Virus record (IMG/VR): IMGVR_UViG_3300032242_000872
Span: 1-52,416 of that record
Length of the DNA stretch: 52,416 nt
Reading direction: 5' to 3' (one strand)
Source: a virus
Taxonomy: Duplodnaviria > Caudoviricetes
In this document: positions 7,259 to 37,529 of the stretch, in pieces
Numbering within the stretch: the stretch's first letter is position 1
How the letters are laid out: each line of letters begins with the position of its first letter
Translations under genes and position numbers: made by a program
Notes under the pieces: model-generated
Seen by the model: only the letters and a program-made list of their open reading frames with translations
Databases searched by the model: none
What the model was told of the DNA's origin: nothing

Positions 7259-10200
7259 ATGCAAAAAGCGGTTAATCCCCAGACGGGGGAGGTGTTGTTC
7301 CTTGTTGACAATCAATGGGTAAAACCAACACAGACCGCTATCAACCCCGATACTGGGGAGAATGCATTCCTTGTAAATAACGCTTGGCAAGTCATGCCAA
7401 TGCCAAAGCCAGCTGAACCTATCGTTTCTCCAGAAGAGCAAATGATGTCTTCTGTTGGACAAACTAGCCAACAACAGCCTTCTGCAGGTGTACTTTCTGG
7501 GACTACCCTACCAGCTAATCCGCCCCCTATGGGTAACAGAGATATCTCGGAAGTAGGCACAGCTTTACCTATTACTAAAGATCTGCCCAAGCTAGATGTC
7601 AGCCAAATGCCTACTGCAGAGGAAAGGGCTGTTGCTAATTTTGGTATTAGCCCTGAGATGGGTTTTGGCGAGAAGGCTTTACGCACTGCTAAAGGCGCTT
7701 TATATGGCGCATCCACAGGTTTAGAACAAAGCTGGGCTGGTGGAGCACGTTTAATTGCCGATATAACTGGTATTAATAAAGAAGAAGTAGCCTCTGCAAG
7801 CAGACAACTTGGTAAAGAACAGGCTGCCGTTGAAAAAACCTATGCCCCTGAATATGGATTTAAGATAGCCAAAGATATTGGCTCATCGGTAGTCCAGAAC
7901 ATTCCAACGATTGGAGCTGGTTTATACGCTGGAACCAGTTCTGCATTAACAAATATGTTCCTGCAGTCATTTACTCAGACTTATGACGACAGTCGTAATG
8001 AAGGATTAGGCGTTGGTGAAAGTACGGTACGCTCTACCCTCTATGGTACAGCCGAGGCATTAGGCGAAAGCCTAGGCCTTCCTAACCTATTAAAAGGCGT
8101 TAAAGGTGCTTTAAAGGGCGTTCCTACGGTAGATCTTGCCAAGGACATGGCTAAGTACATCCTTAAAGAGATTCCAGGAGAGCAGTTCACCTATGTGTCT
8201 CAGTTTTTGACAGACAAAGGGTTTGGTCTAAACCCAGAAGCTGGATTGACAGAGTTCTTACAGGGTGCTCAAGATACCGCTTTGGTCACGGTTGGCCAGA
8301 CTGCCATTATGGGTGGTGGTCTTGGGGCTACCAACAAGATTCTCAAAGAGCTACGTGGTCTTCACTCTAAGGGTGATGAAGGCATTCCTAATGCAGCTGA
8401 TATGGTTAAGCAAGCTGGATTTAATTTTCAAAGACCAGAACCACAAGGGCAGGTAACAATTCAAGGTGCTCCACCAGAGGCGGTAATGCCACCTCAAACA
8501 GCTCCTACTGCTCCAGGAGAGGTTGCTCCATCACGAGCTGTTATTCAAGAAGGTGAGATTGAAGTTCCAGAAGAGGAGGGGGTAACAGCTGTTACACCTA
8601 CAACTGTAGTTCCTAAAAAACCAACATTTGTAAAGAAACCCAATGATCCAGCCATTGAAGCAGAGGCAATAGCTATTGCTGATGAGCTAGATAAGCTAGG
8701 TGAAAAAGGATTTGCTATCGGATTTCGTTCTAAGATTGAAAAAGATGGTGGTCTAACTAAGTCAGAAGATTTGAATTTCTATCGTAATAAATTGCTTGAG
8801 GCACAACAAAAAGCTGGCAAGGCTGAAGAAATGCCACAAGAAAAATTTAATATTGAAAACTATTTGCCAAGCTCAAATAAAGCAGAAGTTAAGCGATTTA
8901 ATCAGTACGTGCCAAATGCGCCAGAACCTGTGCGGGAAATGGTTGGCAAGTCTAATGAATACTTACAAAAGCTTACAGACAAAATCAACAGCCTTGGTTA
9001 TAAGGTATTGGATGTAGACACCAGAGCGCCACAGGAAATTCAAGAATTAAAAAGAAAAATTAGCAATATTGCTGGATCAACATTTGCCTATACAAAAAAT
9101 GCAGAGCATATTGATAAAAACAATCGTTTTGCTAATCCAGACAAATTTGAAAATATTGCTCAGACTTTAGAAAAAGATTTTGCAGATGCAGATCAATTAC
9201 TTGGTATAGAGGCTGCTAAACCACAGGCAACTGAAGTTGTGACTGAAGAAGAACAATTACCTAAATTCTCTCAGGCAGAAAACGTACCAGTCATTCCTGA
9301 AGGGCAAACTGTAGATTCTACTAATCCAGAAGTTCTTAAAAAATTCAATGAGATTATTGAAACTTATGAACCAGAAAGTGGTATCTCGCAGGAAGATAGT
9401 TTTTTATCTGCTATTAATGAAGATGTTCAATCAAAAATTGAAGAAACAAAAGCGCCTCCATTTAAAAAGGGATATGTATCTACAGTTAGTTATGAAGTAG
9501 CCCCATTTAATGGTGGATGGGTAGGCGGTAGCAGCATTATGAGTGCTACTGGTGGCTATGCTTCTGGAGCCAGTATTTGGGATAAGGTTTACCCAACTAA
9601 ACAAGAAGCAATCAATGCACAAATTGATGAACTTCGTGATTCAGCTAAGATTTATGGCAATACCAAAGCATTGGCATGGTTAGATTCTGTTGATCCACGT
9701 TTAACCAAAGAATCCAAAATTGAAACTAATAAAGTTCGTCAGACTGAGAAGAAAACTAAAGCCAAGCCAATAGAAAAGCCTGTTGAAAGGGTAAAGCCAG
9801 TAGAGGCTAAAGAAGAAAAACCAGTTACTACTGAAGCTCTTGAAAAAGCCGTAACTAAAGCTGGAGAGAAAGTTGATTACGACAAGATCAAGAAGTCTGC
9901 TGAGAATCAAATAAATCAAGCCATCAAGCGCACTAAATACATGACCGAAGAAGCGTACAAAGATGCCAAGATTCCAGATGCGGAACGCTTTGTCACTATC
10001 AAACTTGAGGGCGATGGATCATTTAAAGTAAAGAATAATAAAGAACGTCTTGAAGAGTTTAAGAAAAAGTTAGTAAACGCTATCAAGCCTAAACAAGCTG
10101 GCACTCCACGAAGAGAATGGGAAAGCGCAGCTGTAGGATTTAAGGCAGATTCTGCATTTAAAAATTTCCTAAATGAGAAAGAGCCTGAAACAGCGATAGC

Positions 10201-13200: not shown

Positions 13201-15136
13201 AGCTGATATTCATCAGCCTACTGGTGGTGTAGTTCGCACCTTAACAAACGTAAGCCAGGACAAAAAGTTTAAAAAAGGTGTAGTAAACAGAGATATTGAT
13301 GACATTGTGGATAACATGATTCACAACGTTATGATGATGACTCGAAATTCTATGCGTAACTATGCTGCAAATCGTGTAGTTGCCGAATATGGAACTAGAA
13401 AAGAAAATGGCAAATTAAAAGTATTTTCAACTGAAGGTCGTGATAGCGATGGAGTACGTTTTAATATTATTGCTAATGGCCGTAGAATTATTGTTCAGAT
13501 AAAAGATCCGCTGATTGCTGAGTCAGTCATTGGTATGGAAAACATTGAGATTCCAATGAACAAAATATTGGCTGCAATGGCTAACGGCTTGCGTAGAACT
13601 ATTACCTTCTCTGGTGTATTCCAAGTTAAACAGTTATTTATGGATGCTCCTACAGCTGCTTGGGTATCTGGACTTAAGAATCCATTTGCCGTATGGGGAG
13701 GCACGTTTAGTTCATTTTTACAGGCATTAAGAAATAATGATCCAATTGTAAAGATGTTTAAATCTTATGGTATTGGTGGTTTCCAATCAACATCTAGAAC
13801 TCCTGAGAAAGAATTAAAGCTAGAAATTGGATTATTAAATCATTCAAACTATGCCAAATTAATTAAATTCTTAGATCACGTTGGTGATTCTTCTGACTAC
13901 GCTCAACGTAGAGCTATCTACAAACGGGTAATGAAAGAAACATCAAAAACTGGTAAATGGCAAGATGGTGATCAGATGCAAGCGTTGTTGCAAGCTAACA
14001 ATGTTATTGACTTTCTTAAACATGGTAGTGGTCAAACGGCTCAGTTTTTAACCAGGACTGTATCTTTCATGAACGCTTATGCACAGCAGATTGATGTACT
14101 AGCTCAGACATTAGCTGGTGGTGGACTCAAGGGTAAGGATCGCCAAGAAGGACTCAAGCGCATGGCAATTACAGGTGGCTTATTGTCAATGACAACCCTG
14201 CTTTATTGCATGGCTGTAGGCGCTGACGATGACTATCAAGAACTGGATGATCAAACTAAGGCACGTAATTTATATATTCCTGGTTCTAAAAAAGCATTTG
14301 GCCATGCCGTAGTATTACCAATGCATACTTCAGCCAGTTTCTTCTTTAAGGCAATACCAGAGTTACTCTATAACAAGGTAATGAATCAAGGAACTAATAA
14401 CGAGATGGATAATACTCGTTTGCGTACTGCCTTAAAAGAGGCTGCAATTGATTCTTTATTAGGGCCAAATGCCGTTCCAACTGGTGCAAAGCCATTTATT
14501 GAGATTGGTTTAAATAGAAACTTCTTTACTGGCGGTCAACTTACTCCAAAAGGAATGGAAAATTTAGAGGCAGTTGAACAATATACTTCAGCTACTTCTG
14601 AGCTTGGCAAAGTATTTAGCGCCCTTACATCGGTTCCTGGAACAGATAAACGTGCATTAAATCCAATTGAGGCAGATCATTTGATGCGCAGTTTGTTTGG
14701 TTCTGTTGCTGCAATGTCAATGTGGGGATCTAATATGTTTGCTGGAGATCGTCCAGAAGGCCGTGTTAAAGACATTCCAGTAATTGGTCAGTTTGTATTA
14801 CCAGAAGTTCCACGTGGTAATGAGGCTATGTTCTATGACTTTAAAGAGCGTTCTGATGAAAAGTACAACACTTACATGAGAATGCTAGACCGCAACAAAA
14901 TTGATGAAGCCGATCAATATCTTGAGAAAAATATGGGATTGGTAGCTGCCCATGATTATGTAACCTCTATGGATAGTGGCTTAAAAGAGCTTAATAAGCA
15001 GATCCGCAATATTGGTGAAACGAAAGATCCTGATTACACCAAGTCGGAAAGACGTAAAGACATTACTGATCTTCAAGAAACAAAGAAAGATATTCTTGAT
15101 GGAATTGGTTTAATCAGAAAAGATTCAGGCCTGTAA
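7259..15136 (+). CDS. Large polyvalent ejection protein: GHKL ATPase, zincin HExxH domain and LPD38-like C-terminus
   Basis: 2625 aa; KEMLQNSFDA / DDGSGM / GSGGFGIA / GHGT motifs; MIHELAHHKVRNHGADF; PFIEIGLNRNFFTG near the C-terminus. Confidence 0.75.
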   Translation: MQKAVNPQTGEVLFLVDNQWVKPTQTAINPDTGENAFLVNNAWQVMPMPKPAEPIVSPEEQMMSSVGQTSQQQPSAGVLSGTTLPANPPPMGNRDISEVGTALPITKDLPKLDVSQMPTAEERAVANFGISPEMGFGEKALRTAKGALYGASTGLEQSWAGGARLIADITGINKEEVASASRQLGKEQAAVEKTYAPEYGFKIAKDIGSSVVQNIPTIGAGLYAGTSSALTNMFLQSFTQTYDDSRNEGLGVGESTVRSTLYGTAEALGESLGLPNLLKGVKGALKGVPTVDLAKDMAKYILKEIPGEQFTYVSQFLTDKGFGLNPEAGLTEFLQGAQDTALVTVGQTAIMGGGLGATNKILKELRGLHSKGDEGIPNAADMVKQAGFNFQRPEPQGQVTIQGAPPEAVMPPQTAPTAPGEVAPSRAVIQEGEIEVPEEEGVTAVTPTTVVPKKPTFVKKPNDPAIEAEAIAIADELDKLGEKGFAIGFRSKIEKDGGLTKSEDLNFYRNKLLEAQQKAGKAEEMPQEKFNIENYLPSSNKAEVKRFNQYVPNAPEPVREMVGKSNEYLQKLTDKINSLGYKVLDVDTRAPQEIQELKRKISNIAGSTFAYTKNAEHIDKNNRFANPDKFENIAQTLEKDFADADQLLGIEAAKPQATEVVTEEEQLPKFSQAENVPVIPEGQTVDSTNPEVLKKFNEIIETYEPESGISQEDSFLSAINEDVQSKIEETKAPPFKKGYVSTVSYEVAPFNGGWVGGSSIMSATGGYASGASIWDKVYPTKQEAINAQIDELRDSAKIYGNTKALAWLDSVDPRLTKESKIETNKVRQTEKKTKAKPIEKPVERVKPVEAKEEKPVTTEALEKAVTKAGEKVDYDKIKKSAENQINQAIKRTKYMTEEAYKDAKIPDAERFVTIKLEGDGSFKVKNNKERLEEFKKKLVNAIKPKQAGTPRREWESAAVGFKADSAFKNFLNEKEPETAIAIANLTKLDIKKVKLNDAQQKVLNDYIKAAKEVGNEPMMETIKSKPGANVARIAKLLGPQLYGSMSDISNVSVKEMLQNSFDAIKTMIENGTITQGNINIDVDKDTRTIAVTDDGSGMDSDVLANTFFTIAGTKKETEFGSGGFGIAKMLFLFGNENVEVITMRDGKISSMQSTGKNLMAALEDPAFAPNIEVDDKSEWPDYEKMFPKGHGTFVRVTVPKEYKDQSTGEMKEIKFTDSKYAYPVLENSPLFANINVKFNDDTVWDMGTEFPANEYTTFVDANFDWGTARIYVSKDQKDQWGDNLHILSNGLWQFSQGMKLNPMEMFGKNIPHRFYLDVVSKVKPDEEGYPFQLNRQGFTKEAESDLDLIKKYLTLHYQQKDFDTSAKTFGTVQYLGRERSLFGKDKGISVSETINLIPESPKVKEVDGIEEGSQVEVKNGKLIVNGKVVPVLTPEDMKKAAINIDELQIPQSSINPKKVMIHDNLEVKNTDGTFSPITQLAIDEFGERFHDFMFNLGDAFMALRDATARLMPADRKGIDYKNLAKEAIGISFDKEYRGVSITLPFKGLFINPAFPEFIDTPEEAALGMFGTMIHELAHHKVRNHGADFPAEMQRIIIKLESAPSLDIQQLKKDLILTVKENMDIIKFLNKEGSNESNRPIGQRFKDSQYQKRGEDTSADLSKRGKQQRGEPRVSSESESGIEDIREERELEPVSSEGKGSKSDIEEVQNLLKKHARSNTPLHPSNEVADAFMGSVQKGKKIYSRVKENPMMVAPAMISKLDRATTFARNKNIWYGTGLEQADFAKYNGQLRTGQGDAIASLAVTNAIHAGHVGTQVLIEGNLQYNPVTQQFQSVKSDKSMANVITLKSKLMKKLGDQEATDLINGYFEAKRSRSIINEYLNREGAYVKAIEEGEDEATASKNLKNIEVAMQKVNMDDDQIDEFIAMDKKFPELRQMMDNWTAVNHNMLDNMVFSGVISKRRAKDLKAIKDYVPWYRIMDEQADIHQPTGGVVRTLTNVSQDKKFKKGVVNRDIDDIVDNMIHNVMMMTRNSMRNYAANRVVAEYGTRKENGKLKVFSTEGRDSDGVRFNIIANGRRIIVQIKDPLIAESVIGMENIEIPMNKILAAMANGLRRTITFSGVFQVKQLFMDAPTAAWVSGLKNPFAVWGGTFSSFLQALRNNDPIVKMFKSYGIGGFQSTSRTPEKELKLEIGLLNHSNYAKLIKFLDHVGDSSDYAQRRAIYKRVMKETSKTGKWQDGDQMQALLQANNVIDFLKHGSGQTAQFLTRTVSFMNAYAQQIDVLAQTLAGGGLKGKDRQEGLKRMAITGGLLSMTTLLYCMAVGADDDYQELDDQTKARNLYIPGSKKAFGHAVVLPMHTSASFFFKAIPELLYNKVMNQGTNNEMDNTRLRTALKEAAIDSLLGPNAVPTGAKPFIEIGLNRNFFTGGQLTPKGMENLEAVEQYTSATSELGKVFSALTSVPGTDKRALNPIEADHLMRSLFGSVAAMSMWGSNMFAGDRPEGRVKDIPVIGQFVLPEVPRGNEAMFYDFKERSDEKYNTYMRMLDRNKIDEADQYLEKNMGLVAAHDYVTSMDSGLKELNKQIRNIGETKDPDYTKSERRKDITDLQETKKDILDGIGLIRKDSGL
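8582..8595. repeat. 14-bp palindrome copy 1, GTAACAGCTGTTAC
   Basis: Perfect palindrome inside a Pro/Thr linker of the giant protein. Confidence 0.9.
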
Positions 15137-17074: not shown

Positions 17075-17814
17075 GTGTCTATAAAAAGTTGCAGGAAGCA
17101 CGGGTGAACCTGCATAAAACTCAATTAAATAAGTCAGGCAAGAATAAGTTTGCTGGATTTAGTTATTTTGAATTAAGTGACTTTATTCCGCAAGTGACTG
17201 ACATTTTTAACAAGGTTGGTCTTTGCGGGGTCGTATCTTTTACCCAAGATACGGCTTATCTGACTGTGCATGAGACTGAGGGTGATGGATTTATTACATT
17301 TACCTCACCTCTAGTTATGGCAGAGAACGCTAAAGGTCAGGCAATCCAATCTCTGGGCAGTACGCACACCTATTTTCGGAGATACCTCTGGCTTATGGCC
17401 ATGGAGATTACTGAGAATGATGCGATTGATGCAGGAGAGCAGCCAGCAAAAAAGTCTGATGCTGTCACTGTAACAGGTGTTACTAGTACAGCTAAACCTA
17501 TTCAAAACACCATTACCGTACCTGCAGGCGCTAAAGCCACAATAGAAGTAAAGCCTATTGTAGGTGAGGCTGGTGGGTGGCAGATTACAGCACCAGGAAA
17601 ACCAGAAGGTGATGTAAAGGCATGGCTGGACTTAGTTAGCACTGCAACCAATATGTTGCTAGATATCACAGCAAACGATGAAGATGTCATGAAGATATTT
17701 AAGAAAAACAAACTGTTATTCGATACCGTAAAAGCTACCGATGCAGCATTTTTTAAAGATTTAATGATTAATTTTACTGAACGCAAGAATATGTTTATCA
17801 AGGAGAAAGCATAA
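17071..17814 (+). CDS. erf: ERF-family single-strand annealing protein
   Basis: KSGKNKFAGFSYFELSD...QSLGSTHTYFRRYL. Confidence 0.85.
   Translation: MSVYKKLQEARVNLHKTQLNKSGKNKFAGFSYFELSDFIPQVTDIFNKVGLCGVVSFTQDTAYLTVHETEGDGFITFTSPLVMAENAKGQAIQSLGSTHTYFRRYLWLMAMEITENDAIDAGEQPAKKSDAVTVTGVTSTAKPIQNTITVPAGAKATIEVKPIVGEAGGWQITAPGKPEGDVKAWLDLVSTATNMLLDITANDEDVMKIFKKNKLLFDTVKATDAAFFKDLMINFTERKNMFIKEKA
17470..17483. repeat. 14-bp palindrome copy 2, GTAACAGGTGTTAC
   Basis: Lies in the ERF inter-domain linker; the 20-mer GTCAC(T/A)GTAACAGGTGTTAC is shared with copy 4. Confidence 0.9.
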
Positions 17815-19500: not shown

Positions 19501-19691
19501 TGAACGAACAAGATCTAAGAGATTGCTTTGCCATGTTTGCATTAAATGGAATATTGTCTTGCAATTATGACGTTGGCGAAGAACCAGCTGTATTGGCCTA
19601 TAAGTATGCAGATGAAATGCTTGAAGCTAGGTCTGGAAAAGGATCTGTTGGTTTACCTCCAGTGCGGGCACGGAAGGCTAAAAGTAAATGA
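19500..19691 (+). CDS. Small phage protein (RDxFA...AYxxADxM family)
   Basis: LRDCFAMFALNG...LAYKYADEML; similar to 22127..22336. Confidence 0.6.
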   Translation: MNEQDLRDCFAMFALNGILSCNYDVGEEPAVLAYKYADEMLEARSGKGSVGLPPVRARKAKSK

Positions 19692-20545
19692 AAAACATAT
19701 GTGTAGTTAATTTTTGGGATGGAGCGTTTGATGGAGACTTCTTTGATTTTTTCTTTCGCAGCTGTTTTGGGGACATTAATTACATTAGCGACCCTTACAC
19801 CGCTGATCTCATTGTTACTTCTGTGTTTGGAAACACGCAAACAGATCCCAATAAGACTCTTGCCTACATTGGCGAAAATGTACGACCTAGTTTTGTGGGC
19901 TATAGCCACAGCCTGTCTTTTGATTACGACACTTATGGCGGTAGGAATTTACGTTTACCGATCTGGTATGCTCGTTTAGCTTGGCCTGGATTCATTCAAA
20001 AACCTAGGAAACCCAATTTCCACAATCATGGCTATGAAGACCTTATTTCAATTGATTCCCTCACAAGGGGACGCACTCTTGATATGAGCCAAAAAACTAA
20101 GTTTTGTGCCATGGTTGCTGGAAATCCAGAAGGGTTGCGGGTTAATTTATTTAACTCCATTTCAGAATACAAGCGAGTAGATGGTTATGGGAATATGTTT
20201 AATCGTCCTTTACGCAAGTCAAAGTTTGATATTTTAAAAGATTACAAATTTAGCCTATGCCCTGAGAATTCAATCTATGACGGCTATGTAACTGAAAAGT
20301 TAATAGATGCCTACGCTGGCGGTACTGTGCCTATTTATAGTGGTGATGCGTCTGTGGCTGAAGACTTTAATTACATGGCTTTCTTGAACTACCAAGAAGT
20401 TATGGACATGGACTTTCTTGTTTCAAAGGTGGCTATGTTAAGTACAGACGACAGGTACTATCGAGAGATTTACGAACAACCGTTGCTAACTAAAGAACCT
20501 AAACTAAACGATGCGATTGCATTCGTAAGGAGCATAGTTAAATGA
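19688..20545 (+). CDS. GT10-family alpha-1,3-fucosyltransferase-like glycosyltransferase
   Basis: YKFSLCPENSIYDGYVTEKLIDAYAGGTVPIY (alpha-1,3-FucT motif); GENVRP; KTKFCA. Confidence 0.85.
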   Translation: MKNICVVNFWDGAFDGDFFDFFFRSCFGDINYISDPYTADLIVTSVFGNTQTDPNKTLAYIGENVRPSFVGYSHSLSFDYDTYGGRNLRLPIWYARLAWPGFIQKPRKPNFHNHGYEDLISIDSLTRGRTLDMSQKTKFCAMVAGNPEGLRVNLFNSISEYKRVDGYGNMFNRPLRKSKFDILKDYKFSLCPENSIYDGYVTEKLIDAYAGGTVPIYSGDASVAEDFNYMAFLNYQEVMDMDFLVSKVAMLSTDDRYYREIYEQPLLTKEPKLNDAIAFVRSIVK

Positions 20546-21270
20546 AAGAAGAAATACAAAAGCTGATTGACTCATTGCGCCCAGTTAAGACTAAGTTTGA
20601 TTTAATTCGGGTAGGTGGTAACAATGATGGTGGATACCTTATTCCAAACGATTTAATGGGCATTACAGCTTGTTTCTCTCCTGGGGTAGATGTAACTGCA
20701 TCATTTGAAATAGATCTCTGTAAGCGTGGTATTGGCTCTCACCTTGCCGATGGGTCAGTTGATCAAGCCCCTCAAAACTTTACCCCTTTATCATTTACTA
20801 AAAAGTATTTAGGTGGCTGTAACAATGATACCCATATGACTTTAATGGAATGGGTATTAAATAAGCCTGAATATGATTTTGGCAAAGATTTAATACTTCA
20901 AATGGACATTGAAGGTGGAGAATACACTACATTACTATGCGCTCCATCCGTTATTTTGCGTAAGTTTAGAATCATTGTAGTAGAGATCCACAATGTACAT
21001 ACATGGTTTGACTCTTTAGCATGGCCCGTAGTTACAACATTTTTTGAGAAGTTATTAGAAGATTTTCGTGTGGTACACAACCATCCTAACAATAACTGTC
21101 CATTTATAGATGTTGACGGTATTTTAATGCCAACGGTATTTGAGTTAACTTTGCTGCGTAAAGATAGAACGATTGCGCTGGATTATTGTGATCAGTTCCC
21201 GCATCCATTAGACCAACCAAACGTATTAGATAAACCTGACAGACCATTACCTGAAGGATGGTACAAATGA
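20542..21270 (+). CDS. FkbM/Methyltransf_22-like SAM-dependent methyltransferase
   Basis: LIRVGGNNDGGYLIP, FSPGV..SFE, LQMDIEGGEY, VEIH, HNHPNN. Confidence 0.75.
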   Translation: MKEEIQKLIDSLRPVKTKFDLIRVGGNNDGGYLIPNDLMGITACFSPGVDVTASFEIDLCKRGIGSHLADGSVDQAPQNFTPLSFTKKYLGGCNNDTHMTLMEWVLNKPEYDFGKDLILQMDIEGGEYTTLLCAPSVILRKFRIIVVEIHNVHTWFDSLAWPVVTTFFEKLLEDFRVVHNHPNNNCPFIDVDGILMPTVFELTLLRKDRTIALDYCDQFPHPLDQPNVLDKPDRPLPEGWYK

Positions 21271-23750: not shown

Positions 23751-24526
23751 AGAAGCCAACAGTTACTATCGCTCCACCCCCGTCTGGGGCAACCATCTTT
23801 GTAGCAACTCCCATGTATGGTGGTATGTGTACTGGTATGTATTCCTCTGGCGTAATGCAGCTAGTAGGCGCTTGCGGGGCTAATAACATCAAGATGTATT
23901 ACTCATTTATGATGAACGAGTCTTTGATTACCCGTGCCCGCAACAGCATGGCTTATGACTTTTTGAAGTCCGATGCTACCCATCTAATGTTTATTGATGC
24001 AGATATCAACTTTAATCCCAATGACATACCTTTGATGATCAAGGCTGATAAAGACATTATCTGCGGTCTATACCCTAAGAAAGAGATCAACTGGGTAGAA
24101 GTAGAGGCTGCCGTTAAGCGTGGTGTGCCAGCAGCAGAACTTAGCAAATACACTGGCGCTTTTGTGGTTAACCTACCTCATGGTCAAACCAATAAGTCTG
24201 GCCCAATACAAGAGCCTATGGAGATTGATAATGGTGGCACAGGGTTTATGCTGATTAAGCGTGAGGTGTTTGATGCTCTTGCTGACAAAGTTCCAAGCTA
24301 TACCAATGATATGTACCATGCCGTAGATACAGTTCGAGAAGTAAAGATAATCAAAGAGTTCTTTGCCACCAGCATTGATGAAGAATCTAACCGCCTGTTA
24401 TCTGAAGATTATCATTTCTGCAAGATTGCACGGGAAGCTGGTTTTAAAGTTTATGCTGCACCTTGGGCACAATTCGGTCATACTGGAACCTATACATTTA
24501 GTGGACAACTTCCAAGATCAGCGTAA
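23747..24526 (+). CDS. GT-A-fold glycosyltransferase-like protein
   Basis: VATPMYGG, ESLITRARN, HLMFIDADI (DxD), GTGFMLIKR, LSEDYHFC. Confidence 0.75.
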   Translation: MKKPTVTIAPPPSGATIFVATPMYGGMCTGMYSSGVMQLVGACGANNIKMYYSFMMNESLITRARNSMAYDFLKSDATHLMFIDADINFNPNDIPLMIKADKDIICGLYPKKEINWVEVEAAVKRGVPAAELSKYTGAFVVNLPHGQTNKSGPIQEPMEIDNGGTGFMLIKREVFDALADKVPSYTNDMYHAVDTVREVKIIKEFFATSIDEESNRLLSEDYHFCKIAREAGFKVYAAPWAQFGHTGTYTFSGQLPRSA

Positions 24527-25985: not shown

Positions 25986-26014
25986 GGGGTGAGTAGAAAC
26001 TGCTCACCCTTTTT
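25986..26014 (+). terminator. Rho-independent terminator ending the middle operon
   Basis: GGGTGAGTAG-aaa-CTGCTCACCC followed by T5. Confidence 0.8.
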
Positions 26015-26135
26015 GTATAATTTTTGCCAATTTCTATACATATAACTATCAATATGCATAAAAAGTCTTTAATAAAAACAATTTTTATTAAAATTTCATG
26101 CAGTTTTTGTAAAGTTTTTTAAACTTATTGTAAAG

Positions 26136-26480
26136 TTATAACTCTAGCGGATCGAATCCAAGCTCTTCTGATACGACCTTGGTGCGCCTTCTGAACTCAG
26201 CATCATGGTGAGACCATTTGGAGGTCTTCCAACGGCTCATATGGACGGCTTCATGAGCCAGAACACGGATCACTGTCGATAGGTGACCACATTTCTTTTC
26301 TGAAATAGTTATAACGTGCTCGTACTTCTCGCCATCATCATATAAATAGGTTCCCATAGCATCGTCTTGATCTATGACAAACTTAATCTGCTCTGGCAAT
26401 GGCATAGGCCAGCGAACAAACGGCTTCATGCAATACATAGCCGAATACAGATTTTTAATAATTGATGGGGTCAATTTCAT
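26136..26480 (-). CDS. SprT-like zinc metalloprotease
   Basis: VLAHEAVHM...HHDAEF; start moved to MKLTPS (ATGA overlap). Confidence 0.7.
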   Translation of the reverse strand: MKLTPSIIKNLYSAMYCMKPFVRWPMPLPEQIKFVIDQDDAMGTYLYDDGEKYEHVITISEKKCGHLSTVIRVLAHEAVHMSRWKTSKWSHHDAEFRRRTKVVSEELGFDPLEL

Positions 26481-27457
26481 ACTTTGTTTATGCAACCACG
26501 AAACTCAAATTCACCATTTTCTTCATCACTGACCATAATAAGCTCTGGCATTAACATTCTACCTTGGTCAAAAGATAGCATTACAAAGCCTGAACGCCAA
26601 TCCTTGGGGCTATCCTCACAGTACTCGAAGGTAGATGACATAGGATCTGCAAGGCAGCCAGTCTGGATTCCCCAAAAGTTTCCTTGGTAATTTGAAATTG
26701 GTTGGGCAGCCAATACGTGTGTATGGCCAGTAATGATGTTTGTGTTACCAGCTGCTTGCAAATTGCTGTAACCTGCCGTGCGTCCGCCCTTATAACGGTG
26801 TTTTACCACAGTGTTCTCGCCAATCCAAAAGCTCCAACAAGTTTCCCATTCTGGGAAATGATACTTGAGAGAAAAGCCATCAACTCCGCTATACTCGGGA
26901 ACTTTATTAACCAGCCATGACTCATAGCGCATATCGTGGTTACCCAACGTCCATATGAGTCTGCAGCCTGCTGGCTTATGCTTAACTATCTCATCTAAGT
27001 GGTAACGACAAGCGCTCAACTCTTGCAAAACGCTGGGTTTTTGGTCGTAATTGATTGATGGGAATCGACTGAGAACTTGGCCATCAAAAGCATCTCCGTT
27101 ACAAATAATGACTTGGGGCTTAAATTCTTTTATCATTATCAGCAATGCTTTAAATGCCGTGGTAGTTGTTTCAGTGAAGTGAGCATCTGAAAAAACAATT
27201 ACCCTTTTAACTTTATCTACATCAATGCCTCTGCGGACATTGTGCGCTGCAAGATCTACTTTATTTTTGGGTTTTTTTTCATCTCGCTGAGAGTTAGTTG
27301 TAGGCAATTCAATGCCATAACGTATTTCAATATTACTTCTTCTGGTCATGGCACTTCGAGGATTTATTCCTAATTCCTTGCCAACCAGAAGTGGACTTCC
27401 TAATTTATTCCAAAGTTTAATAAACTCTTTATCCGACTTTTCATCATATCGTGCCAT
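26477..27457 (-). CDS. Calcineurin-like metallophosphoesterase
   Basis: SDAH, NGDAFD, GNHD, KH, GHTH motifs. Confidence 0.85.
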   Translation of the reverse strand: MARYDEKSDKEFIKLWNKLGSPLLVGKELGINPRSAMTRRSNIEIRYGIELPTTNSQRDEKKPKNKVDLAAHNVRRGIDVDKVKRVIVFSDAHFTETTTTAFKALLIMIKEFKPQVIICNGDAFDGQVLSRFPSINYDQKPSVLQELSACRYHLDEIVKHKPAGCRLIWTLGNHDMRYESWLVNKVPEYSGVDGFSLKYHFPEWETCWSFWIGENTVVKHRYKGGRTAGYSNLQAAGNTNIITGHTHVLAAQPISNYQGNFWGIQTGCLADPMSSTFEYCEDSPKDWRSGFVMLSFDQGRMLMPELIMVSDEENGEFEFRGCINKV

Positions 27458-27559
27458 CCCAACCCCTTGTATTTAAACGGAATTTAATACACTTTTCGGA
27501 ATATAACATAAAATTATGTAAGTATTTACATATATTTTTACAAAATAAGGCACTACATA

Positions 27560-27589
27560 TTGATCTATTCCAGTCTTTTGTGCTATATT
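27560..27589 (+). promoter_or_regulatory. Promoter of the candidate sRNA
   Basis: TTGATC, 18 nt, extended -10 TGc-TATATT. Confidence 0.5.
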
Positions 27590-27593
27590 TAGT

Positions 27594-27713
27594 ATACCAA
27601 GCCCACTCTTGGTATCGCACTCCTTTTCTCCTAGCAGAGACTTGTGCAACGCAAGACCTCGGATCTACGATCCCCAAGACCCTCAGACTAAAAACCTGGG
27701 GGTCTTTTCTTTT
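27594..27713 (+). ncRNA. Candidate trans-acting antisense sRNA (~120 nt)
   Basis: 5' stem ATACCAAG/CTTGGTAT, unpaired CACTCCTTTTCTCCTAGCAG, two small hairpins, terminal 11-bp stem and U-tract. Confidence 0.55.
27676..27713 (+). terminator. Rho-independent terminator of the candidate sRNA
   Basis: AAGACCCTCAG / CTGGGGGTCTT stem (one G-U) followed by TTCTTTT; no convincing plus-strand CDS upstream. Confidence 0.7.
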
Positions 27714-27717
27714 GGGT

Positions 27718-27731
27718 GTAACAGCTGTTAC
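27718..27731. repeat. 14-bp palindrome copy 3, GTAACAGCTGTTAC
   Basis: Intergenic, 40 bp upstream of the -35 of the parB/helicase/primase promoter. Confidence 0.9.
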
Positions 27732-27771
27732 GCTAAGATCCGCAATAAATACTTAATACGTAAAAATACTC

Positions 27772-27800
27772 TTGCAAATATTTTTGTATTGAGTTAATCT
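27772..27800 (+). promoter_or_regulatory. Sigma70-type promoter of the replication operon
   Basis: TTGCAA, 17 nt, TAATCT with an AT-rich upstream region. Confidence 0.6.
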
Positions 27801-27805
27801 GATTG

Positions 27806-28075
27806 GGCTAGGTGAAAAGGAATGTGGATAAAGTGCTTAATTGCGCTTGTCTCTCATTTCATTTCACCATCGCTACACCATATAGGTCGGACATAACAGC
27901 AGCTATATGGGAAGAGCCCTTACTGTGGGAGTAGATTTGTAACAGGGGAAGAGATGGCGAAGCCAGAGTCTCTAATCGAACGTCTGGCGGGTGCAGTGGC
28001 TCCAAAAAGCAAACTGTTGAAGGCAACCTAGGAGAGGCTAGGTGCGTTCACCAAAAAGCAATGTCGAGATGAGAC
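27806..28075 (+). ncRNA. Structured ~270-300 nt leader RNA or origin-associated element
   Basis: No ORF; about six consecutive stems, e.g. GGTGAAA/TTTCACC, CCATATAG/CTATATGG, ACCTAG/CTAGGT; CCAAAAAGCAA repeated. Confidence 0.5.
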
Positions 28076-28103
28076 TGGACTAATAGTTAACAAGGGGGGT
28101 GGT

Positions 28104-28520
28104 GTGAAGACCAAGCCGTTTAATCAGGCGGTGCATGATGCGTGTGATCCAGTGGCCAGAGATGTAGTGATTGAGAAGATCAAAGCCAAGTGGGGATGGG
28201 ATGCCAAGCCGTTTGATAAATATAAAGTGGATCTGATTGTTGAAAATGAGTTCATGGTGCCTATCTTTTACGCAGAAGTAGAGATGCGTGATTGGGAGGA
28301 TTGCCCGTTTAACACCATCCATGTACCAGGACGCAAGAAGAAGTTGTTTGATAACGATATGCCCACTACCTACTTTGTAGTCTCCAAGAGCTTAAAAAGT
28401 ATCTGGTATTGCAAGGCAAAGGATATACTTAATTCCCCTCTAGTGGAAATTAAGAATAAAGCAGTAAAAGAGGGCGAATATTTTTATGATGTGCCAATAG
28501 AAAAGTGGAGAAAATTATGA
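28104..28520 (+). CDS. PD-(D/E)XK-fold endonuclease-like protein
   Basis: DKYKVDLIV...YAEVEMR...IHVPGRKKK. Confidence 0.55.
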   Translation: MKTKPFNQAVHDACDPVARDVVIEKIKAKWGWDAKPFDKYKVDLIVENEFMVPIFYAEVEMRDWEDCPFNTIHVPGRKKKLFDNDMPTTYFVVSKSLKSIWYCKAKDILNSPLVEIKNKAVKEGEYFYDVPIEKWRKL

Positions 28521-29353
28521 AGGTTTTAAACATATCCAACATCAGAATTGATGGGGGAACTCAAGCACGTATTGCATTAAATCAAGATGTTGTTAAAGAC
28601 TATGCAGAAAAGATGCGTGATGGCGAACAATTTCCAGAGATTACCGTATTTTTTGACGGCTCAGACTATTGGCTGGCTGATGGTTTTCATCGTTACTTTG
28701 CTACTAAATCAAATAGCACAGTCAGCATCAATTGTGATATCAAGAATGGCACATTAGATGATGCAATTCTGTTTGCTTTTGGTGCTAATGGTAAGCGTGG
28801 TTTAACTATGTCTGCGGAAGATAACCGCAATGTAATTTATGCCATGCTGCGCCATGCAGAGTGGAGTAAGTGGTCTAACGCTGCAATTGCAAAGCACGTT
28901 GGTGTATCAAAGATGACAGTAGGCCGTGTTAAAGCTACGCTAGATATCAAAGATGAGGATAGTGTCAAAAAGTTTAAAGATAGGCACGGCAATGAATCAA
29001 CAATGGAGACTAAGAATCTCAAGTCTAAAAAACCCACCAAGCCTGATGTAATAACGGCTAATCCTTTTGCAGAATATGATGAAAAGATTAAAGAGCTAAC
29101 TGATACCATCATTGAGCAGGATAAAGAGAATCAAATACTGCGGGATCAAATTGCTATTGGCCAGTGGGATGCCAGCGATATAGAAAAGATTGATGTCCAA
29201 GATACCATCAAGGATTTGCGTGAACAGATCCGTATCCTTGAGATTGATAACAAGGCTATGCGTGAGAGCCGTGATATGTTTCAAAATCGTAACTCAGAAC
29301 TAATGAGATCTTTAAAAGCAGCGCAGAACAAACTAAAAAAACTGGAGGGATAA
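28517..29353 (+). CDS. ParB-like protein (ParB/Srx N-domain, HTH, coiled coil)
   Basis: GTQAR, YWLADGFHR, ANGKRGL, WSNAAIAKHVGVSKMTVGRVK, C-terminal heptads. Confidence 0.8.
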   Translation: MKVLNISNIRIDGGTQARIALNQDVVKDYAEKMRDGEQFPEITVFFDGSDYWLADGFHRYFATKSNSTVSINCDIKNGTLDDAILFAFGANGKRGLTMSAEDNRNVIYAMLRHAEWSKWSNAAIAKHVGVSKMTVGRVKATLDIKDEDSVKKFKDRHGNESTMETKNLKSKKPTKPDVITANPFAEYDEKIKELTDTIIEQDKENQILRDQIAIGQWDASDIEKIDVQDTIKDLREQIRILEIDNKAMRESRDMFQNRNSELMRSLKAAQNKLKKLEG

Positions 29354-29514
29354 TGAAAGACTATGCACCATATCTAATCAACGCTAGAAAACTTTTGCGT
29401 GGAATAGAGGAAAGTACTAATAAGAGAGAATATAAAAAGGCCTTTGAATTAGCTTATCATCTAGGAGAGTTGTCTGAGATGTTAAAAGAGTCTTTGTTGC
29501 ACATGAAAAAATAG
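29353..29514 (+). CDS. 53-aa hypothetical protein (not in ORF track)
   Basis: GGAGG RBS and TAATG coupling; MKDYAPYLINARKLL. Confidence 0.5.
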   Translation: MKDYAPYLINARKLLRGIEESTNKREYKKAFELAYHLGELSEMLKESLLHMKK

Positions 29515-29567
29515 GTCGCAAGACCAGCCCAAGTCAGGGGGGAATCCTGACAGTTAAAGGAATAGTA

Positions 29568-31076
29568 ATGTTAGAGTTGCGTGAGCATCAAGTGCAAGTC
29601 ATTGATGCGTTAAGAGATGGTTTTAGAAAAGGCCATCGTGCCCAATTGCTATATGCCCCAACGGGGTTTGGCAAAACAGAAGTAGCAATTTATTTAATGA
29701 AGGCTACCTCTGAGAAATACAAAAAGGCTGCCATGGTTTTAGATCGGCTAGTCTTAGTAGATCAAACCAGTATGCGTCTTACTAAGTATGGTATCAATCA
29801 TGGCGTATTTCAAGCGGATCACTGGAAATATGATATTCGTGAAAGGCTGCAAGTAGCTTCTGCACAGACCATGGAAAAGCGTAGTAACTTTCCAGAGATG
29901 GATTTAATCATCGTAGATGAATGTCATATCACCAGAGAGCAGACTACAGAGCTTATTAAATCTAATCCAAATGTCAGAGTGATTGGTTTAACTGCAACAC
30001 CTTTTACTAAAGGTCTGGGAGATATATATACCAATGTCGTTTGCGGATCTACTACGCAGGACTTAGTGCAAAAGAAATGGCTTGCACCGCTTAAGGTTTA
30101 TATCTCTAAAGAAATTGATATGACTGGAGTTAAGAAGGTTGCTGGAGAATGGAGTCAAGATCAGGTGACCCAGCGTGGTATGCAGATCACAGGCAACATT
30201 GTTGATGAATGGATTAAGAAGACTCATGAAGTATTTGGCAGACCAAGAAAGACGATTGTCTTTTGTGCTGGTGTTGCTCATGGTGCAGATCTAGTAGATC
30301 AGTTTGCTCAGAAGGGTTATAACTTTGTATCTATTTCTTATAAAGATAATGATGAGTTTAAGAAGGCAGCCATAGAAGACTTTGCACGGCCAGACACAGA
30401 GATCCATGGCCTCATAGCTACAGACATCCTCACCAGGGGATTTGATGTCCCCGATGTCATGATTGGTGTATCAGCAAGACCATTTTCTAAATCCTTATCA
30501 AGCCATATACAACAGATGGGTCGTGTGATGCGTAGCCATCCAGATAAAGAGTTTGCACTGTGGTTAGATCACTCAGGCAATTACCTTCGGTTCCGTGATG
30601 AATGGGATGATGTATATGAAGTAGGAGTCAGCAAGCTAGATCAGCACTCAGAAAAAGCCAAGCGTGAGCCTACAGAGAAGGTTAAAAAAGAATCTAAGTG
30701 CCCTAAGTGTGAGGCACTATGGCCTAAGAACTCAGATACTTGCTCATCTTGCGGGTTTGTGCGCCAAAAGCGTAATCAGGTGGACTCAGTAGCGGGTGAG
30801 CTAATTGAGCTTGGCAGCGTAGGTAAATCTCAAAAGCAGGAAAAGCAGATATTTTATTCAGAGCTGCTCTATATTGCTAAAGAAAGAAATTACAATGAGC
30901 ATTGGGCAAGCCATAAGTATCGAGAGAAGTTTGGAGTATGGCCTAGAGGATTAGATCAACAACCTATGCCCCCTACATTAAAGACGGCAAATTGGATTAA
31001 AAGCAAAAACATTGCTTGGGCTAAAAAGTCTAAGCGTAAACCTATGACAGTAAATTTGGAGAGATTAAATGACTAG
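29568..31076 (+). CDS. SF2 DExH helicase (YejH/SSL2-like) with C-terminal Zn ribbon
   Basis: APTGFGKT, DECH, GLTATP, LTRGFD, QQMGRVMR, CPKC..CSSC. Confidence 0.9.
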   Translation: MLELREHQVQVIDALRDGFRKGHRAQLLYAPTGFGKTEVAIYLMKATSEKYKKAAMVLDRLVLVDQTSMRLTKYGINHGVFQADHWKYDIRERLQVASAQTMEKRSNFPEMDLIIVDECHITREQTTELIKSNPNVRVIGLTATPFTKGLGDIYTNVVCGSTTQDLVQKKWLAPLKVYISKEIDMTGVKKVAGEWSQDQVTQRGMQITGNIVDEWIKKTHEVFGRPRKTIVFCAGVAHGADLVDQFAQKGYNFVSISYKDNDEFKKAAIEDFARPDTEIHGLIATDILTRGFDVPDVMIGVSARPFSKSLSSHIQQMGRVMRSHPDKEFALWLDHSGNYLRFRDEWDDVYEVGVSKLDQHSEKAKREPTEKVKKESKCPKCEALWPKNSDTCSSCGFVRQKRNQVDSVAGELIELGSVGKSQKQEKQIFYSELLYIAKERNYNEHWASHKYREKFGVWPRGLDQQPMPPTLKTANWIKSKNIAWAKKSKRKPMTVNLERLND

Positions 31077-31230
31077 AGATGGTGGTAAGGGTGATGCACC
31101 TCGCCCATTGGTTGTGCCGATAGAAGAATTTGATAAGAACTTTGAAACAATCTTTGGTAAAAAAGAAAAGACTTACGAACCTATTCCATTTTTTGGTTTG
31201 ATTGAAAATGAGGATGAAGATGAGATTTGA
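31069..31230 (+). CDS. 53-aa conserved small phage protein (not in ORF track)
   Basis: MTRDGGKGDAPRP...FDKNFETIFG. Confidence 0.55.
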   Translation: MTRDGGKGDAPRPLVVPIEEFDKNFETIFGKKEKTYEPIPFFGLIENEDEDEI

Positions 31231-32053
31231 AGACTTTGCTAAATCCCATGGGCTGCTTATTGAAAGCACTATTCCTTTCCGATGGGTATCTACGCCAACA
31301 GAAGATCATCCACGCAAACGTAACGGCAGATATAAATTCATGGGTGATATAGGTTGGGTTCAAAACTGGGCTACGATGGATAAACCAGCCCTGTGGAAGA
31401 TGGATGGTAAATTTTCGCTCTCTCCCGAACTATTAAGAGAGAGAAATTCCGCCTTCGGTCAGCGCCAAAGACTAGCTGATAAGGCCGCAGCCAAAGCTGG
31501 CTGGATCATGCACCAGACCAAGAGCGATCTGCATCCATATTTAAAGGAAAAAGGATTCCCAGAGGAGGAGGCCTCCGTCTGGGTTAAGGATGATAAGAAA
31601 CTAATCGTCATACCGATGCGTATAGCGGGGAAGTTGGTGGGCTGCCAGCTCATCGATGAACAAGGGCAGAAGAAGTTCCTCTATGGACAGATTACGAAGG
31701 GGGCATCTTTCACCATTGATGCAAGAGGCATCCCGATTCTTTGTGAGGGGTTTGCCACGGCTCTGTCCGTTCAGGCCGTGATGCGAGCAAACAAAATCCC
31801 TTACAGAATTGAGGTCTGCTTTTCGGCAGGAAACCTGAAGGAAATAGCTAGTCGGCACATCAACGGATTCATCGTTGCCGATAATGATCCCAATGGTATC
31901 GGAGAGTCGGTTGCCAAGCAAACAGGCAAACCTTATTGGATCTCCGACACAATCGGGGAGGATTTCAATGATTATCATCAAAGGGTGGGCTCTTTCAAGG
32001 CAAGTCAGTCGTTAAAGAAGACCTATATTCTTGCATCTTCCGCAAAAACTTAG
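31220..32053 (+). CDS. TOPRIM-domain primase (P4 alpha/TraC N-terminal-like, COG4643 type)
   Basis: HPYLKEKG, QLIDEQGQKKFL.G, CEGFATALS, FSAGNL, VADND, DFND. Confidence 0.85.
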   Translation: MRFEDFAKSHGLLIESTIPFRWVSTPTEDHPRKRNGRYKFMGDIGWVQNWATMDKPALWKMDGKFSLSPELLRERNSAFGQRQRLADKAAAKAGWIMHQTKSDLHPYLKEKGFPEEEASVWVKDDKKLIVIPMRIAGKLVGCQLIDEQGQKKFLYGQITKGASFTIDARGIPILCEGFATALSVQAVMRANKIPYRIEVCFSAGNLKEIASRHINGFIVADNDPNGIGESVAKQTGKPYWISDTIGEDFNDYHQRVGSFKASQSLKKTYILASSAKT

Positions 32054-33024: not shown

Positions 33025-33412
33025 TTTCATCTCCTTCTGCTGGATCAGTATCAATAACAATATGGCCAAAGCGCAGTTTGCCATCCCCATTAGTGCTGCA
33101 AACAGTGCTCTTATTAAAAGTAACAATGTTATCGTGGTGCTCGGTAAGATCCTCGACCAGCTCAATCGGCACCAGACCGATCAGGCCAGCATCTACTGGA
33201 TACTCTTTACCATTAGAGCCAGCATAGCAGCCGTCACCCCATTGAGTCCCAAATGCCAACACTTTGAATGCACCAACAGACCCAATAGGATTACGGAAAA
33301 AATCGCATGAGGTTAGCAAACCATCCCAATCCTCATATGGCACGGCATAGCACGGATCACCCAGCACATACTGTCCAGCAGGAACAGTCACCTCTACTTT
33401 AGTTATTTGCAT
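33014..33412 (-). CDS. Early protein with GDPCY...VDAGLIG motifs (DUF4241-like)
   Basis: YVLGDPCY, TQWGDGCY, PVDAGLIGLVP; start MQITK. Confidence 0.6.
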   Translation of the reverse strand: MQITKVEVTVPAGQYVLGDPCYAVPYEDWDGLLTSCDFFRNPIGSVGAFKVLAFGTQWGDGCYAGSNGKEYPVDAGLIGLVPIELVEDLTEHHDNIVTFNKSTVCSTNGDGKLRFGHIVIDTDPAEGDENDW

Positions 33413-36410: not shown

Positions 36411-36650
36411 ATCACAGCTCGGGAAAACTAAAAGCCCGACAAATCAAGGGTTGCAGGGCAGCGAGTCCAGGAGCAAAGCACAGTAAAAAATTAAAAGCCC
36501 GACCAATGCGAGAGCAAAGCAGCCCAGAGACTACAGACCAGAGAGACCAAGAGAGAGATAAACTACTAGGGGATGAGATAACTACTGTCCGATGCTGTTC
36601 TGATGTCCTATTATCTGGATTGTGCAAATACCCCGCTTATACCCTATTAA

Positions 36651-37529
36651 ATGAAACTATCACGCAAGGAAATCAAGGAAGGCCTAGAGCAGATCCCAGT
36701 AGAGAAACTCTTACTGGGTAGTGCAGCTCATGGGATCGGATTAACCAAGAAACAAAAAGCCTTTGCGAATGAAGTAGTGAAGTCTGGGAATAAAACTAAG
36801 GCCTATAAAACTGCCTACAATCACACAGGCAAACCAGAGACGGCCAGCCGTAACGCTCAGACCTTGGCAAACGATACCAAGGTTGCAACATATATCGCAG
36901 CTCTAGAAGCAGCAGAACAGGCAAGAGCGTACCTTGTTCCTGCTCGTTTAAGGGATCTGGCGATCCATAAGATCACAGAGAAGGCCTTAGACCCCGATGT
37001 CCCACCAGCCCAACAGTTAAAAGCTCTTGAATTGCTGGGCAAGATCACCGAAGTTAGTCTGTTTACCCATCGCACCGAGACAGTCCACCTCACCAGCTCA
37101 GCAGATATTAAAGAGCAGCTGATTAAATCCTTGCGCCTAGCGATGTCTGGGAACAATGTTACAGATGTCGAGGCCAAACCTGTTGATGATCTACTGGCAG
37201 AGCTGGCAGGCCGTGATGATCCTGCTGCTGCCATCGACAGCGACAGCTCCAACATCCTGCAAGACGCTGCGCCTCTGGACGATGCAGACCAAGACCCCGT
37301 CACCCCATCGCTAAACCCAGACCCAGCAGACCCACCATCCCCCGACCCCCAAAAGTCGGCCTTATCTATACCACCCCAGTTGCATAGTATTCCGCACAAT
37401 CAATCACTGCTAGAATCCAAAACCCTCAATTCAACGTTCCAATCAACGGTCACAGTAACAGGTGTTACACTGACACAGGGTAAACCCTTAGATGGGGAGG
37501 GGGTCATTGAAAATGCTAAGGACGAGTAA
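36651..37529 (+). CDS. Terminase small subunit-like protein with disordered C-terminal extension
   Basis: LTKKQKAFA...NKTKAYKTAY HTH; LKALELLGK; upstream of TerL. Confidence 0.7.
   Translation: MKLSRKEIKEGLEQIPVEKLLLGSAAHGIGLTKKQKAFANEVVKSGNKTKAYKTAYNHTGKPETASRNAQTLANDTKVATYIAALEAAEQARAYLVPARLRDLAIHKITEKALDPDVPPAQQLKALELLGKITEVSLFTHRTETVHLTSSADIKEQLIKSLRLAMSGNNVTDVEAKPVDDLLAELAGRDDPAAAIDSDSSNILQDAAPLDDADQDPVTPSLNPDPADPPSPDPQKSALSIPPQLHSIPHNQSLLESKTLNSTFQSTVTVTGVTLTQGKPLDGEGVIENAKDE
37455..37468. repeat. 14-bp palindrome copy 4, GTAACAGGTGTTAC
   Basis: In the disordered TerS tail, about 130 bp upstream of the LexA-like HTH gene. Confidence 0.9.

Follow-up and report, generated by a model that had tools for sequence, protein, structure and literature searches.

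The Bacillus protein Noc, a host protein that carries a membrane-targeting helix and acts in nucleoid occlusion, binds 14-bp NBS palindromes scattered across the genome; the OB operators of KorB, whose ParA partner is IncC, are many copies of one short palindrome dispersed over RK2; and the SopB sites of phage N15 are likewise dispersed. In phage lambda, ori-lambda lies inside gene O, the gene of the lambda O protein, and SPP1 has G38P with oriL. Extracts from published reports describe KorB as a global regulator whose role extends beyond partition alone (PMC11790492, PMC13768133), count four inverted-repeat centromere sites (IR1-4) for the ParB-family protein SopB on phage N15 (PMC7205306), present VirB of Shigella, with its virS sites, as an orphan ParB-type protein that uses specific sites for gene expression and not segregation (PMC10770331), and assign to orphan phage ParB homologues—built from an N-terminal nucleotide-binding and a C-terminal dimerisation domain—the activation of thymine dioxygenases, again outside partition (PMC13229309). 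Here we describe a 14-bp palindrome that occurs four times in a viral genome encoding an orphan ParB-like protein: IMG/VR virus record IMGVR_UViG_3300032242_000872 (Duplodnaviria; Caudoviricetes), a linear record with a completeness estimate of 82%, of which positions 1 to 52,416 make up the stretch of 52,416 nucleotides analysed here (the window). We consider it fairly probable that the palindromes are cognate sites of this ParB-fold protein and serve as nucleation points for replication or recombination functions, not for partition.

An exact scan for the 14-mer GTAACAGSTGTTAC recovered the four copies reported in a preliminary description of this DNA (Table 1), with the same gaps of 8888, 10248 and 9737 bp; the four copies yield six strand matches because the two GC-centred ones are perfect palindromes. 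The claim that such a 14-mer would arise by chance far less than once also held, GTAACAGSTGTTAC being absent from all 100 dinucleotide shuffles. When up to two mismatches were allowed, the weaker copy already noticed at 4125 was recovered together with three more places (18926, 29994 and 40845), the four contributing six strand matches against 0.59 expected for all matches. A wider scan used the looser core TAACA-N0-3-TGTTA, for which about 0.55 matches are expected by chance in the window; it added two possible weaker sites, of which the one at 13995 may be a chance match. The flanks of the four exact copies fail to align with each other, and the repeated unit is therefore the 14-mer itself.

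Three copies had been placed in coding sequence, and copies 1, 2 and 4 do lie inside open reading frames (ORFs)—those of a giant gene, an ERF recombinase and the small terminase TerS. All three are read in the frame GTA-ACA-GSt-GTT-AC, with TAA arising in one of the other two frames. Copy 3 had been called intergenic and just upstream of a promoter driving parB: the first part stands, for no supported gene covers it, but a consensus promoter scan found a single promoter-like site, which lies upstream (27560-27589), and none downstream. Taken alone, the gaps between copies are unusually even (coefficient of variation 0.058; P = 0.004 against four random points). Comparable evenness is lacking in five relatives whose sites were mapped (P = 0.04, 0.44, 0.19, 0.37 and 0.31), and the two extra core sites, at 13995 and 33120, disrupt the even spacing in the window. 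We rejected regular spacing as a designed feature because it is unrepeated in relatives; the evenness appears to be largely a by-product of conserved placements.

Those placements emerge from comparison with related phages. In the viral collection, relatives of the large terminase TerL and of the ParB-like protein run into the hundreds in each case, and confirmed hits among IMG/VR relatives number at least 574. A megablast search of positions 26000-32000 against the phage collection gave zero matches, and at the protein level only eight distant records matched, including Vibrio phage CHOED and Aeromonas phages 1233 and MQM1. The window's exact motif was found within one mismatch in only eight of 39 related records, and nearly every relative carries its own variant of the same design, set in its own flanks: a half-site nTAACA (sometimes GAACA or TCACA), often lengthened to 18-26 bp, around a centre of 1-4 variable bases. 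Complete genomes carry between 2 and 11 copies. In 21 genomes the core TAACA-N0-3-TGTTA was found 57 times, where a first-order Markov model predicts about 4.9 occurrences and a reversed control gives 6; it is also present in 22 of 24 further relatives, while the reversed control has no match across all 24.

Several positions recur. A perfect palindrome lies at most 700 bp upstream of a gene for a LexA-like protein in 24 of the 36 related loci that carry this gene, and the 3′ end of TerS, or the gap before the LexA-like gene, often holds tandem arrays with a spacing of 24-41 bp. Early placement within the giant gene, at 9-29% of its length, is shared by the window with G018, G009, G005, G007, G010, G001, G047 and G042; a site in the ERF gene of G040 falls at the same fraction of length as copy 2; and the same kind of site is found 490-850 bp upstream of parB in L088-L094, L091, L092, L105 and L189. 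Intergenic DNA is enriched threefold in site clusters (15 of 68 clusters against 7.2% of bases; P = 8e-5). Within ORFs the motif is almost always read GTA-ACA in the relatives too, with TAA in one of the other two frames.

Other features were seen at the 3′ end of TerS and in the record of one relative. Three relatives carry there, at the spot that the phage-specific palindrome occupies in others, 16-mers matching what we take to be the canonical chromosomal-type parS motif (L063 2311-2326, L066 575-590 and G008 48725-48740, equivalent to L145 8725-8740), which may recruit host ParB. The blocks TTGCATAGTATTCC and ACACAGGGTAAACCCT flank the palindrome both in the window (37380-37500) and in G008 (48560-48680); their coding content is of low complexity, and their conservation suggests that the 3′ part of the terminase gene contains more cis elements. 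In G001 (L146-L149) the first ~10 kb are repeated at the end of the record, as in an assembled concatemer, giving a true length of ~61.7 kb.

The strongest link between the ParB-like gene and the palindrome is one of position. Among 79 loci of homologues in bacterial genomes, 57 have a perfect palindrome (arms of at least 8 bases) at +300 to +650 within the gene itself, where about 2.5 would be expected. These in-gene palindromes, found in many phyla, are 16-37 bp long, lie mostly at about +415 to +460 and are often framed by TCACT...AGTGA; they sit just past the helix-turn-helix codons, and their sequence differs from gene to gene, even between paralogues on one chromosome. Among distant viral homologues (31-56% identity), several also have an in-gene site at +417 to +556, right behind the helix-turn-helix codons, in the form of a perfect palindrome of 17-23 bp with another sequence. 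In the clade of the window the palindrome instead lies upstream of parB, at the distance given above.

One Planctomycetes chromosome illustrates the diversity of the family, with at least 10 paralogues that combine the N-domain and the helix-turn-helix (L279, L284-L286, L292, L297, L300, L301, L323 and L329). An in-gene palindrome is present in eight of ten of these loci and in neither L279 nor L297. One of them, L286, has three in-gene copies in tandem, 66 bp apart.

The preliminary description had named covariation between palindrome and helix-turn-helix in relatives as a check on its reading, and the recognition helix does change with the half-site. Helices of the form S-K/R-M-T-V-G-R are paired with GTAACA in 13 of 13 rows, and rows without K/R have the G in 2 of 11; S-x-S-T-V-N/Q-R helices are paired with GAACA half-sites (G010, G008 and L197), and SPM helices with CTCTAACA in both G005 and L340, whose proteins are only 41% identical. 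On the tree, the K/R and G traits change about four times each, in the same places. In the 67 distinct homologues whose palindrome is in-gene, the more alike two helices are, the more alike their half-sites tend to be, once N-domain identity is controlled for (partial r 0.30, with 0 of 1000 permutations as high), in a test of the Mantel type, which can be liberal for related sequences. From these sequence comparisons the ParB-like protein appears to be the best candidate binder, ahead of the LexA-like protein and TerS.

Its structure model (predicted local distance difference test, pLDDT, 80.9) comprises an N-domain, a helix-turn-helix, a disordered linker and a long, strongly conserved coiled coil. 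The helix-turn-helix is formed in the model by helices 121-128 and 132-142 and follows directly on the N-domain, with K132-L142 as the recognition helix; the DGFHR motif, helix-turn-helix and coiled coil noticed earlier are thus all present. Best Foldseek matches were ParB-CDP (6sdk), Noc (7ng0, 7nfu, 7ol9), Myxococcus ParB, KorB (8qa9, 8qa8) and Caulobacter ParB, with E-values of 2e-7 to 4e-6 over 145-154 columns spanning both N-domain and helix-turn-helix; sulfiredoxin ranked lower. A profile of 17 homologues matched Myxococcus ParB (1.3e-5), sulfiredoxin (3.9e-5) and Spo0J (7e-5), PF02195 was present in 59-87% of members of the neighbouring Atlas clusters, and the Pfam match to HTH_23 was weak. 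Judged by model and profile, the protein combines a predicted N-terminal ParB/sulfiredoxin fold with a helix-turn-helix. Across the 17 homologues Q16 and R18 are invariant, and G56, R59 and N91 invariant or nearly so (N91 nearly), while the Box III glutamate, which precedes N91, is an alanine.

The palindrome and the ParB-like protein are not a partition system. No ParA (PF13614, PF01656) was found in any of five records—the window and four complete relatives—nor any tyrosine integrase (PF00589) in the same records, which bears out what had been seen in the window; for want of a ParA, the palindromes are not a partition centromere. The N-terminal ParA-binding motif, defined in one report as [LFI]G[KR]G[LFI] (PMC12704722), does not occur in the sequence of the ParB-like protein.

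Gene order suggests another role. The parB operon comprises a small ORF, the ParB-like protein, a superfamily 2 (SF2) helicase and a Toprim primase, with copy 3 in the divergent control region upstream. A helicase ORF directly follows parB in 69 distinct loci among 122 ParB loci, and many of the others end early downstream. Burkholderiales prophages have a ParB-like gene followed by a ResIII/Helicase_C helicase and Toprim_3 (with PriCT_2 in one); homologues from this order of bacteria include those of Variovorax, Pigmentiphaga and Glaciimonas. In Planctomycetes the ParB-like gene stands in a recombination/replication module after a DUF3799 nuclease, AAA_24 and DUF669 (three of the loci examined on the chromosome with many paralogues). 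The helicase of the window is closest to RadD. Since genes for a RadD-like helicase and a Toprim primase nearly always come next after parB, we read the palindromes as loading sites for replication, recombination or regulation. Site presence and conservation, covariation with the protein, fold and gene order are all results of computation.

The preliminary description took the dispersed palindromes for a parS/ParB system in which ParB, loaded at each site, would coat, condense, position or shield the genome. It overlooked that parB heads a conserved helicase-primase module, which points to replication or recombination and not to coating or shielding. That interpretation is partly supported: covariation, the proximity of gene and site, and the fold favour ParB as the binder, but the regular spacing is not conserved and partition would have to do without a ParA.

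We infer the binding, nucleotide dependence and biological role of the ParB-like protein along the following lines. A dimer, probably joined by the C-terminal coiled coil, would put one helix-turn-helix on each nTAACA half-site; K132, the first residue of the recognition helix, would read the outer G, and the central 1-4 bases would go unread. The sites would serve the protein as entry or nucleation points for organising functions of replication or recombination on the phage DNA; it probably regulates its own operon as well. It may also act as a nucleotide-gated clamp, in the manner of KorB or Noc. A bolder version, which we put forward tentatively and regard as doubtful, is that this ParB-fold family is a new origin-recognition or helicase-recruiting class, each member having its own origin-like palindrome in or beside its gene, with nucleotide-gated loading of the RadD-like helicase and primase and with phage replication fired or organised from several points.

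Besides the liberality of the permutation test, several observations weigh against the assignment of the palindromes to a ParB-fold protein with a part in replication or recombination. The rule linking K/R to G is not absolute (G occurs without K/R in L261, G006 and L275, and the K of G009 is found with mixed A/G sites), and its phylogenetically corrected test is underpowered, with one independent pair on well-supported branches. Within a single genome the central spacer can differ by 1-3 bases (G002, G017, G025 and G039), which is unusual for a rigid dimer, and the perfect palindromes of some homologues reach 37 bp, more than a dimer would typically cover. As to the fold, the Pfam ParB_N model gives no match to the protein at E = 0.01, and the segment that aligns with the Box II arginine patch GERRxRA is ADGFHRYFA, which retains just the final arginine. 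For replication in particular, the window's own parB has no in-gene palindrome, 83 sites show no AT-rich flank on average, the helicase is a RadD-like SF2 enzyme and no known replicative type, and up to 11 sites per genome are many for origins.

Among the other explanations, it is unlikely that the protein, without any part in replication, acts as a sliding clamp gated by cytidine triphosphate (CTP), loading at evenly spaced sites and thereby coating, condensing, positioning or shielding the whole genome. Its fold does match those of the CTP-binding ParB, Noc and KorB, the pocket residues Q16, R18, G56, R59 and N91 are kept in the way described above, and dispersed sites number 2-11 per genome. 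An extract from a published survey reports that orphan ParB-fold proteins on mobile elements may bind CTP, ATP or GTP, and adds that neither sequence nor AlphaFold3 reliably predicts nucleotide specificity (PMC12704722). DGFHR replaces GERR, however, the Box III glutamate is an alanine and the even spacing is unconserved in relatives; a clamp of this kind would also leave the strict gene pairing with helicase and primase unexplained. That the palindromes are operators through which the LexA-like winged-helix protein regulates late genes, an alternative that had been raised for the binder, we regard as improbable. Copy 4 does lie upstream of the gene, as palindromes of its type do in 24 of 36 related loci; there is a match of the domain to LexA_DNA_bind (4.8e-6), and the 5-N4-5 layout of the palindrome would resemble Gram-positive SOS boxes. 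Yet the protein is highly conserved, with a helix 3 that is identical in phages with GTAACA, TTTAACA and TGAACA sites, and L079 and L081 have identical helix and wing with different sites (ACTATAAC vs ACTGTAAC). Moreover, phages and prophages that lack the gene keep palindromes beside or inside parB—G007 (100% complete) and G020 (92% complete) have palindromes and no LexA-like homologue—and three of the four window copies are inside genes, not at promoters. A better operator candidate is the perfect 14-bp palindrome TTTTGTATACAAAA (37562-37575), which has a single copy in the window, 40 bp upstream of the LexA-like gene; similar AT-rich palindromes occur upstream of that gene in L011, L079, L072 and L076.

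We give equally little credence to the palindromes as pac-type sites at which TerS would recognise the DNA and mark packaging starts, even though many headful phages keep pac at the 3′ end of the TerS gene, and this end, with its tandem arrays 24-41 bp apart, is the most conserved placement. Three or more copies far from TerS would start packaging at many places, and homologous palindromes lie inside parB in prophages with no TerS nearby. The helix-turn-helix groups of TerS also cut across site classes: its DNA-binding region groups G000 with phages using T- or C-type sites, and G000 and G025 have the same site with different types of TerS. The LexA-like protein and TerS were accordingly rejected as binders, as neither covaries with site class. 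A very improbable account takes the palindromes for hairpins or cruciforms, in RNA or single-stranded DNA, that work independently of ParB as processing sites, priming signals or hairpin promoters. Arm pairing is kept while arm sequence changes between phages, the central loop is 1 to 5 bases long, and some homologues have very long perfect palindromes, all of which would suit such structures; pairing alone does not require, however, that all copies in one genome have the same sequence, and the window 14-mer yields only a weak stem of 5-6 bp. The asymmetric centre (AGGT or ACCT) occurs in either orientation relative to the sense strand, for which reason a strand-specific RNA element was rejected. 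Finally, it is scarcely credible that the palindrome is a host repeat or host-factor site picked up by, or selected in, the phage. The host-type parS at the TerS 3′ end of three relatives indicates that host-factor sites can occupy that spot, but half-sites differ among close relatives and track their own ParB helix, and the bacterial-genome palindrome lies in the homologous gene and differs even among paralogues of one chromosome. With a separate variant in each related phage, an abundant host repeat is also unlikely.

The features discussed above are listed in Table 1. The structural module of the window ends with the giant gene, whose homologues in relatives encode proteins of 2566-4620 amino acids, and the small LexA-like gene overlaps the start of the large terminase gene. 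Two elements surround copy 3. Betaproteobacteria-1 RNA (RF02932) is found between this copy and the parB operon and, on the same strand upstream of parB, in five of 20 related loci (87-95 bits; L183 1934-2054, L199 1977-2092, L097 607-729, L101 2727-2843 and L103 2200-2320); it has the appearance of a leader or small RNA of the phage that belongs with the parB module. On the other side, at 27560-27715, the promoter-like site precedes a well-folding stretch of ~120 nt (z = -4.3) with a strong hairpin and U-run at its end; this terminator-like hairpin ends 3 nt before copy 3, and the stretch may be a small RNA with its own terminator. Elsewhere, genes for GT10 fucosyltransferase-like, FkbM-type methyltransferase, radical-SAM/SPASM, GT2 and Anp1-like proteins are clustered in the early region (19688-24526) and may serve sugar or surface modification, or DNA modification. 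A small protein encoded on the minus strand at 31995-32306 matches sigma-70 region 4 (1e-6) and may be a phage transcription factor.

Table 1. Palindromic sites, genes and RNA of the window that bear on the proposed protein-site pair.
Feature	Position	Strand	Remarks
Palindrome copy 1, GTAACAGCTGTTAC	8582..8595		Within giant gene (2625 amino acids), at 17% of length
Palindrome copy 2, GTAACAGGTGTTAC	17470..17483		Within ERF recombinase gene, at 53-54% of length, past ERF domain
Palindrome copy 3, GTAACAGCTGTTAC	27718..27731		Divergent control region, 799 bp upstream of parB ATG
Palindrome copy 4, GTAACAGGTGTTAC	37455..37468		3′ end of TerS gene, 147 bp upstream of LexA-like gene
Possible weaker site, CTAACAATGTTAT	13995..14007		13-base form of core
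Possible weaker site, GTAACAATGTTAT	33120..33132		One change from 13-base form of relative G025
Giant virion or polyvalent protein, 2625 amino acids	7259-15136		Domains LPD38, GHKL-ATPase (HATPase_c_3)
Betaproteobacteria-1 RNA (RF02932)	27876..27992	+	93 bits; between copy 3 and parB operon
ParB-like protein (proposed binder)	28517..29353	+	phrog_1033 match 2e-18; alternative GTG start 28505
RadD-like SF2 helicase with zinc-finger motif	29568..31076	+	Conserved partner gene downstream of parB
Toprim primase-like protein	31202..32053	+	Third gene of parB module
Small terminase TerS (Terminase_2)	36651..37529	+	Rival binder (pac reading), tested, not favoured
LexA-DNA-binding-like winged helix protein	37602..37847	+	Between TerS and TerL; rival binder, tested, not favoured

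Our literature search, whose coverage did not extend to subscription journals, found no description of dispersed cognate sites for an orphan phage ParB or of a parB-helicase-primase module. Phage-genome papers, in the extracts consulted, name orphan ParB-like genes by annotation only, and orphan ParB-fold proteins, which are common on mobile elements, are described in one survey as largely uncharacterised (PMC12704722). The window gives such a protein a concrete candidate DNA target and a candidate residue-to-base rule, K132 with the outer G, and its relatives reveal a family-wide habit of keeping the palindrome in or next to the gene, together with a constant pairing with helicase and primase. 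This ParB-like family is widespread, many phyla being represented among the phages and prophages that carry it. Should the proposed tie to replication prove true, the ParB switch would reach beyond segregation and gene silencing, to how phage DNA replication is started or organised. Natural protein-site pairs of this kind could also become orthogonal DNA-labelling pairs, like existing ParB-parS pairs.

Of the systems described at the outset, KorB, like the protein of the window, joins a ParB fold to a helix-turn-helix and is among the top structural matches; it has, however, the canonical arginine patch and a demonstrated CTP dependence, where the window has DGFHR, no ParA and a gene tied to helicase and primase. 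Noc is likewise an orphan ParB paralogue without ParA and a top structural match, but its gene, unlike the parB of the window, is not linked to replication genes. Phage N15, as the window does, carries four inverted-repeat sites for a ParB-family protein on a phage genome; it also has SopA and a plasmid prophage that needs partition, whereas the search of the window found no ParA, no integrase and nothing to suggest that the phage lives as a plasmid. VirB, which uses CTP, resides on a virulence plasmid, where it counteracts H-NS. The phage ParBs that activate dioxygenases work with 5mYOX and, in the extract of the report that describes them, have no obvious DNA-binding domain (PMC13229309), whereas the protein of the window has a helix-turn-helix. 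We rejected a 5mYOX-type dioxygenase as its partner, Pfam scans of the window ORFs having given no dioxygenase match.

Lambda O differs in fold from the ParB/sulfiredoxin domain and helix-turn-helix of the window's protein, and systems of its type contrast with the clade of the window, in which the site lies upstream of the gene and extra copies are many, and with the sites as a whole, which have no AT-rich flank on average. Among distant homologues of the ParB-like protein a resemblance to lambda O may be drawn: the cis site would likewise lie in the protein's own gene, within the stretch encoding the linker that follows the DNA-binding domain, at the head of a module of replication genes, and the tandem arrays of such systems would have a counterpart in L286.

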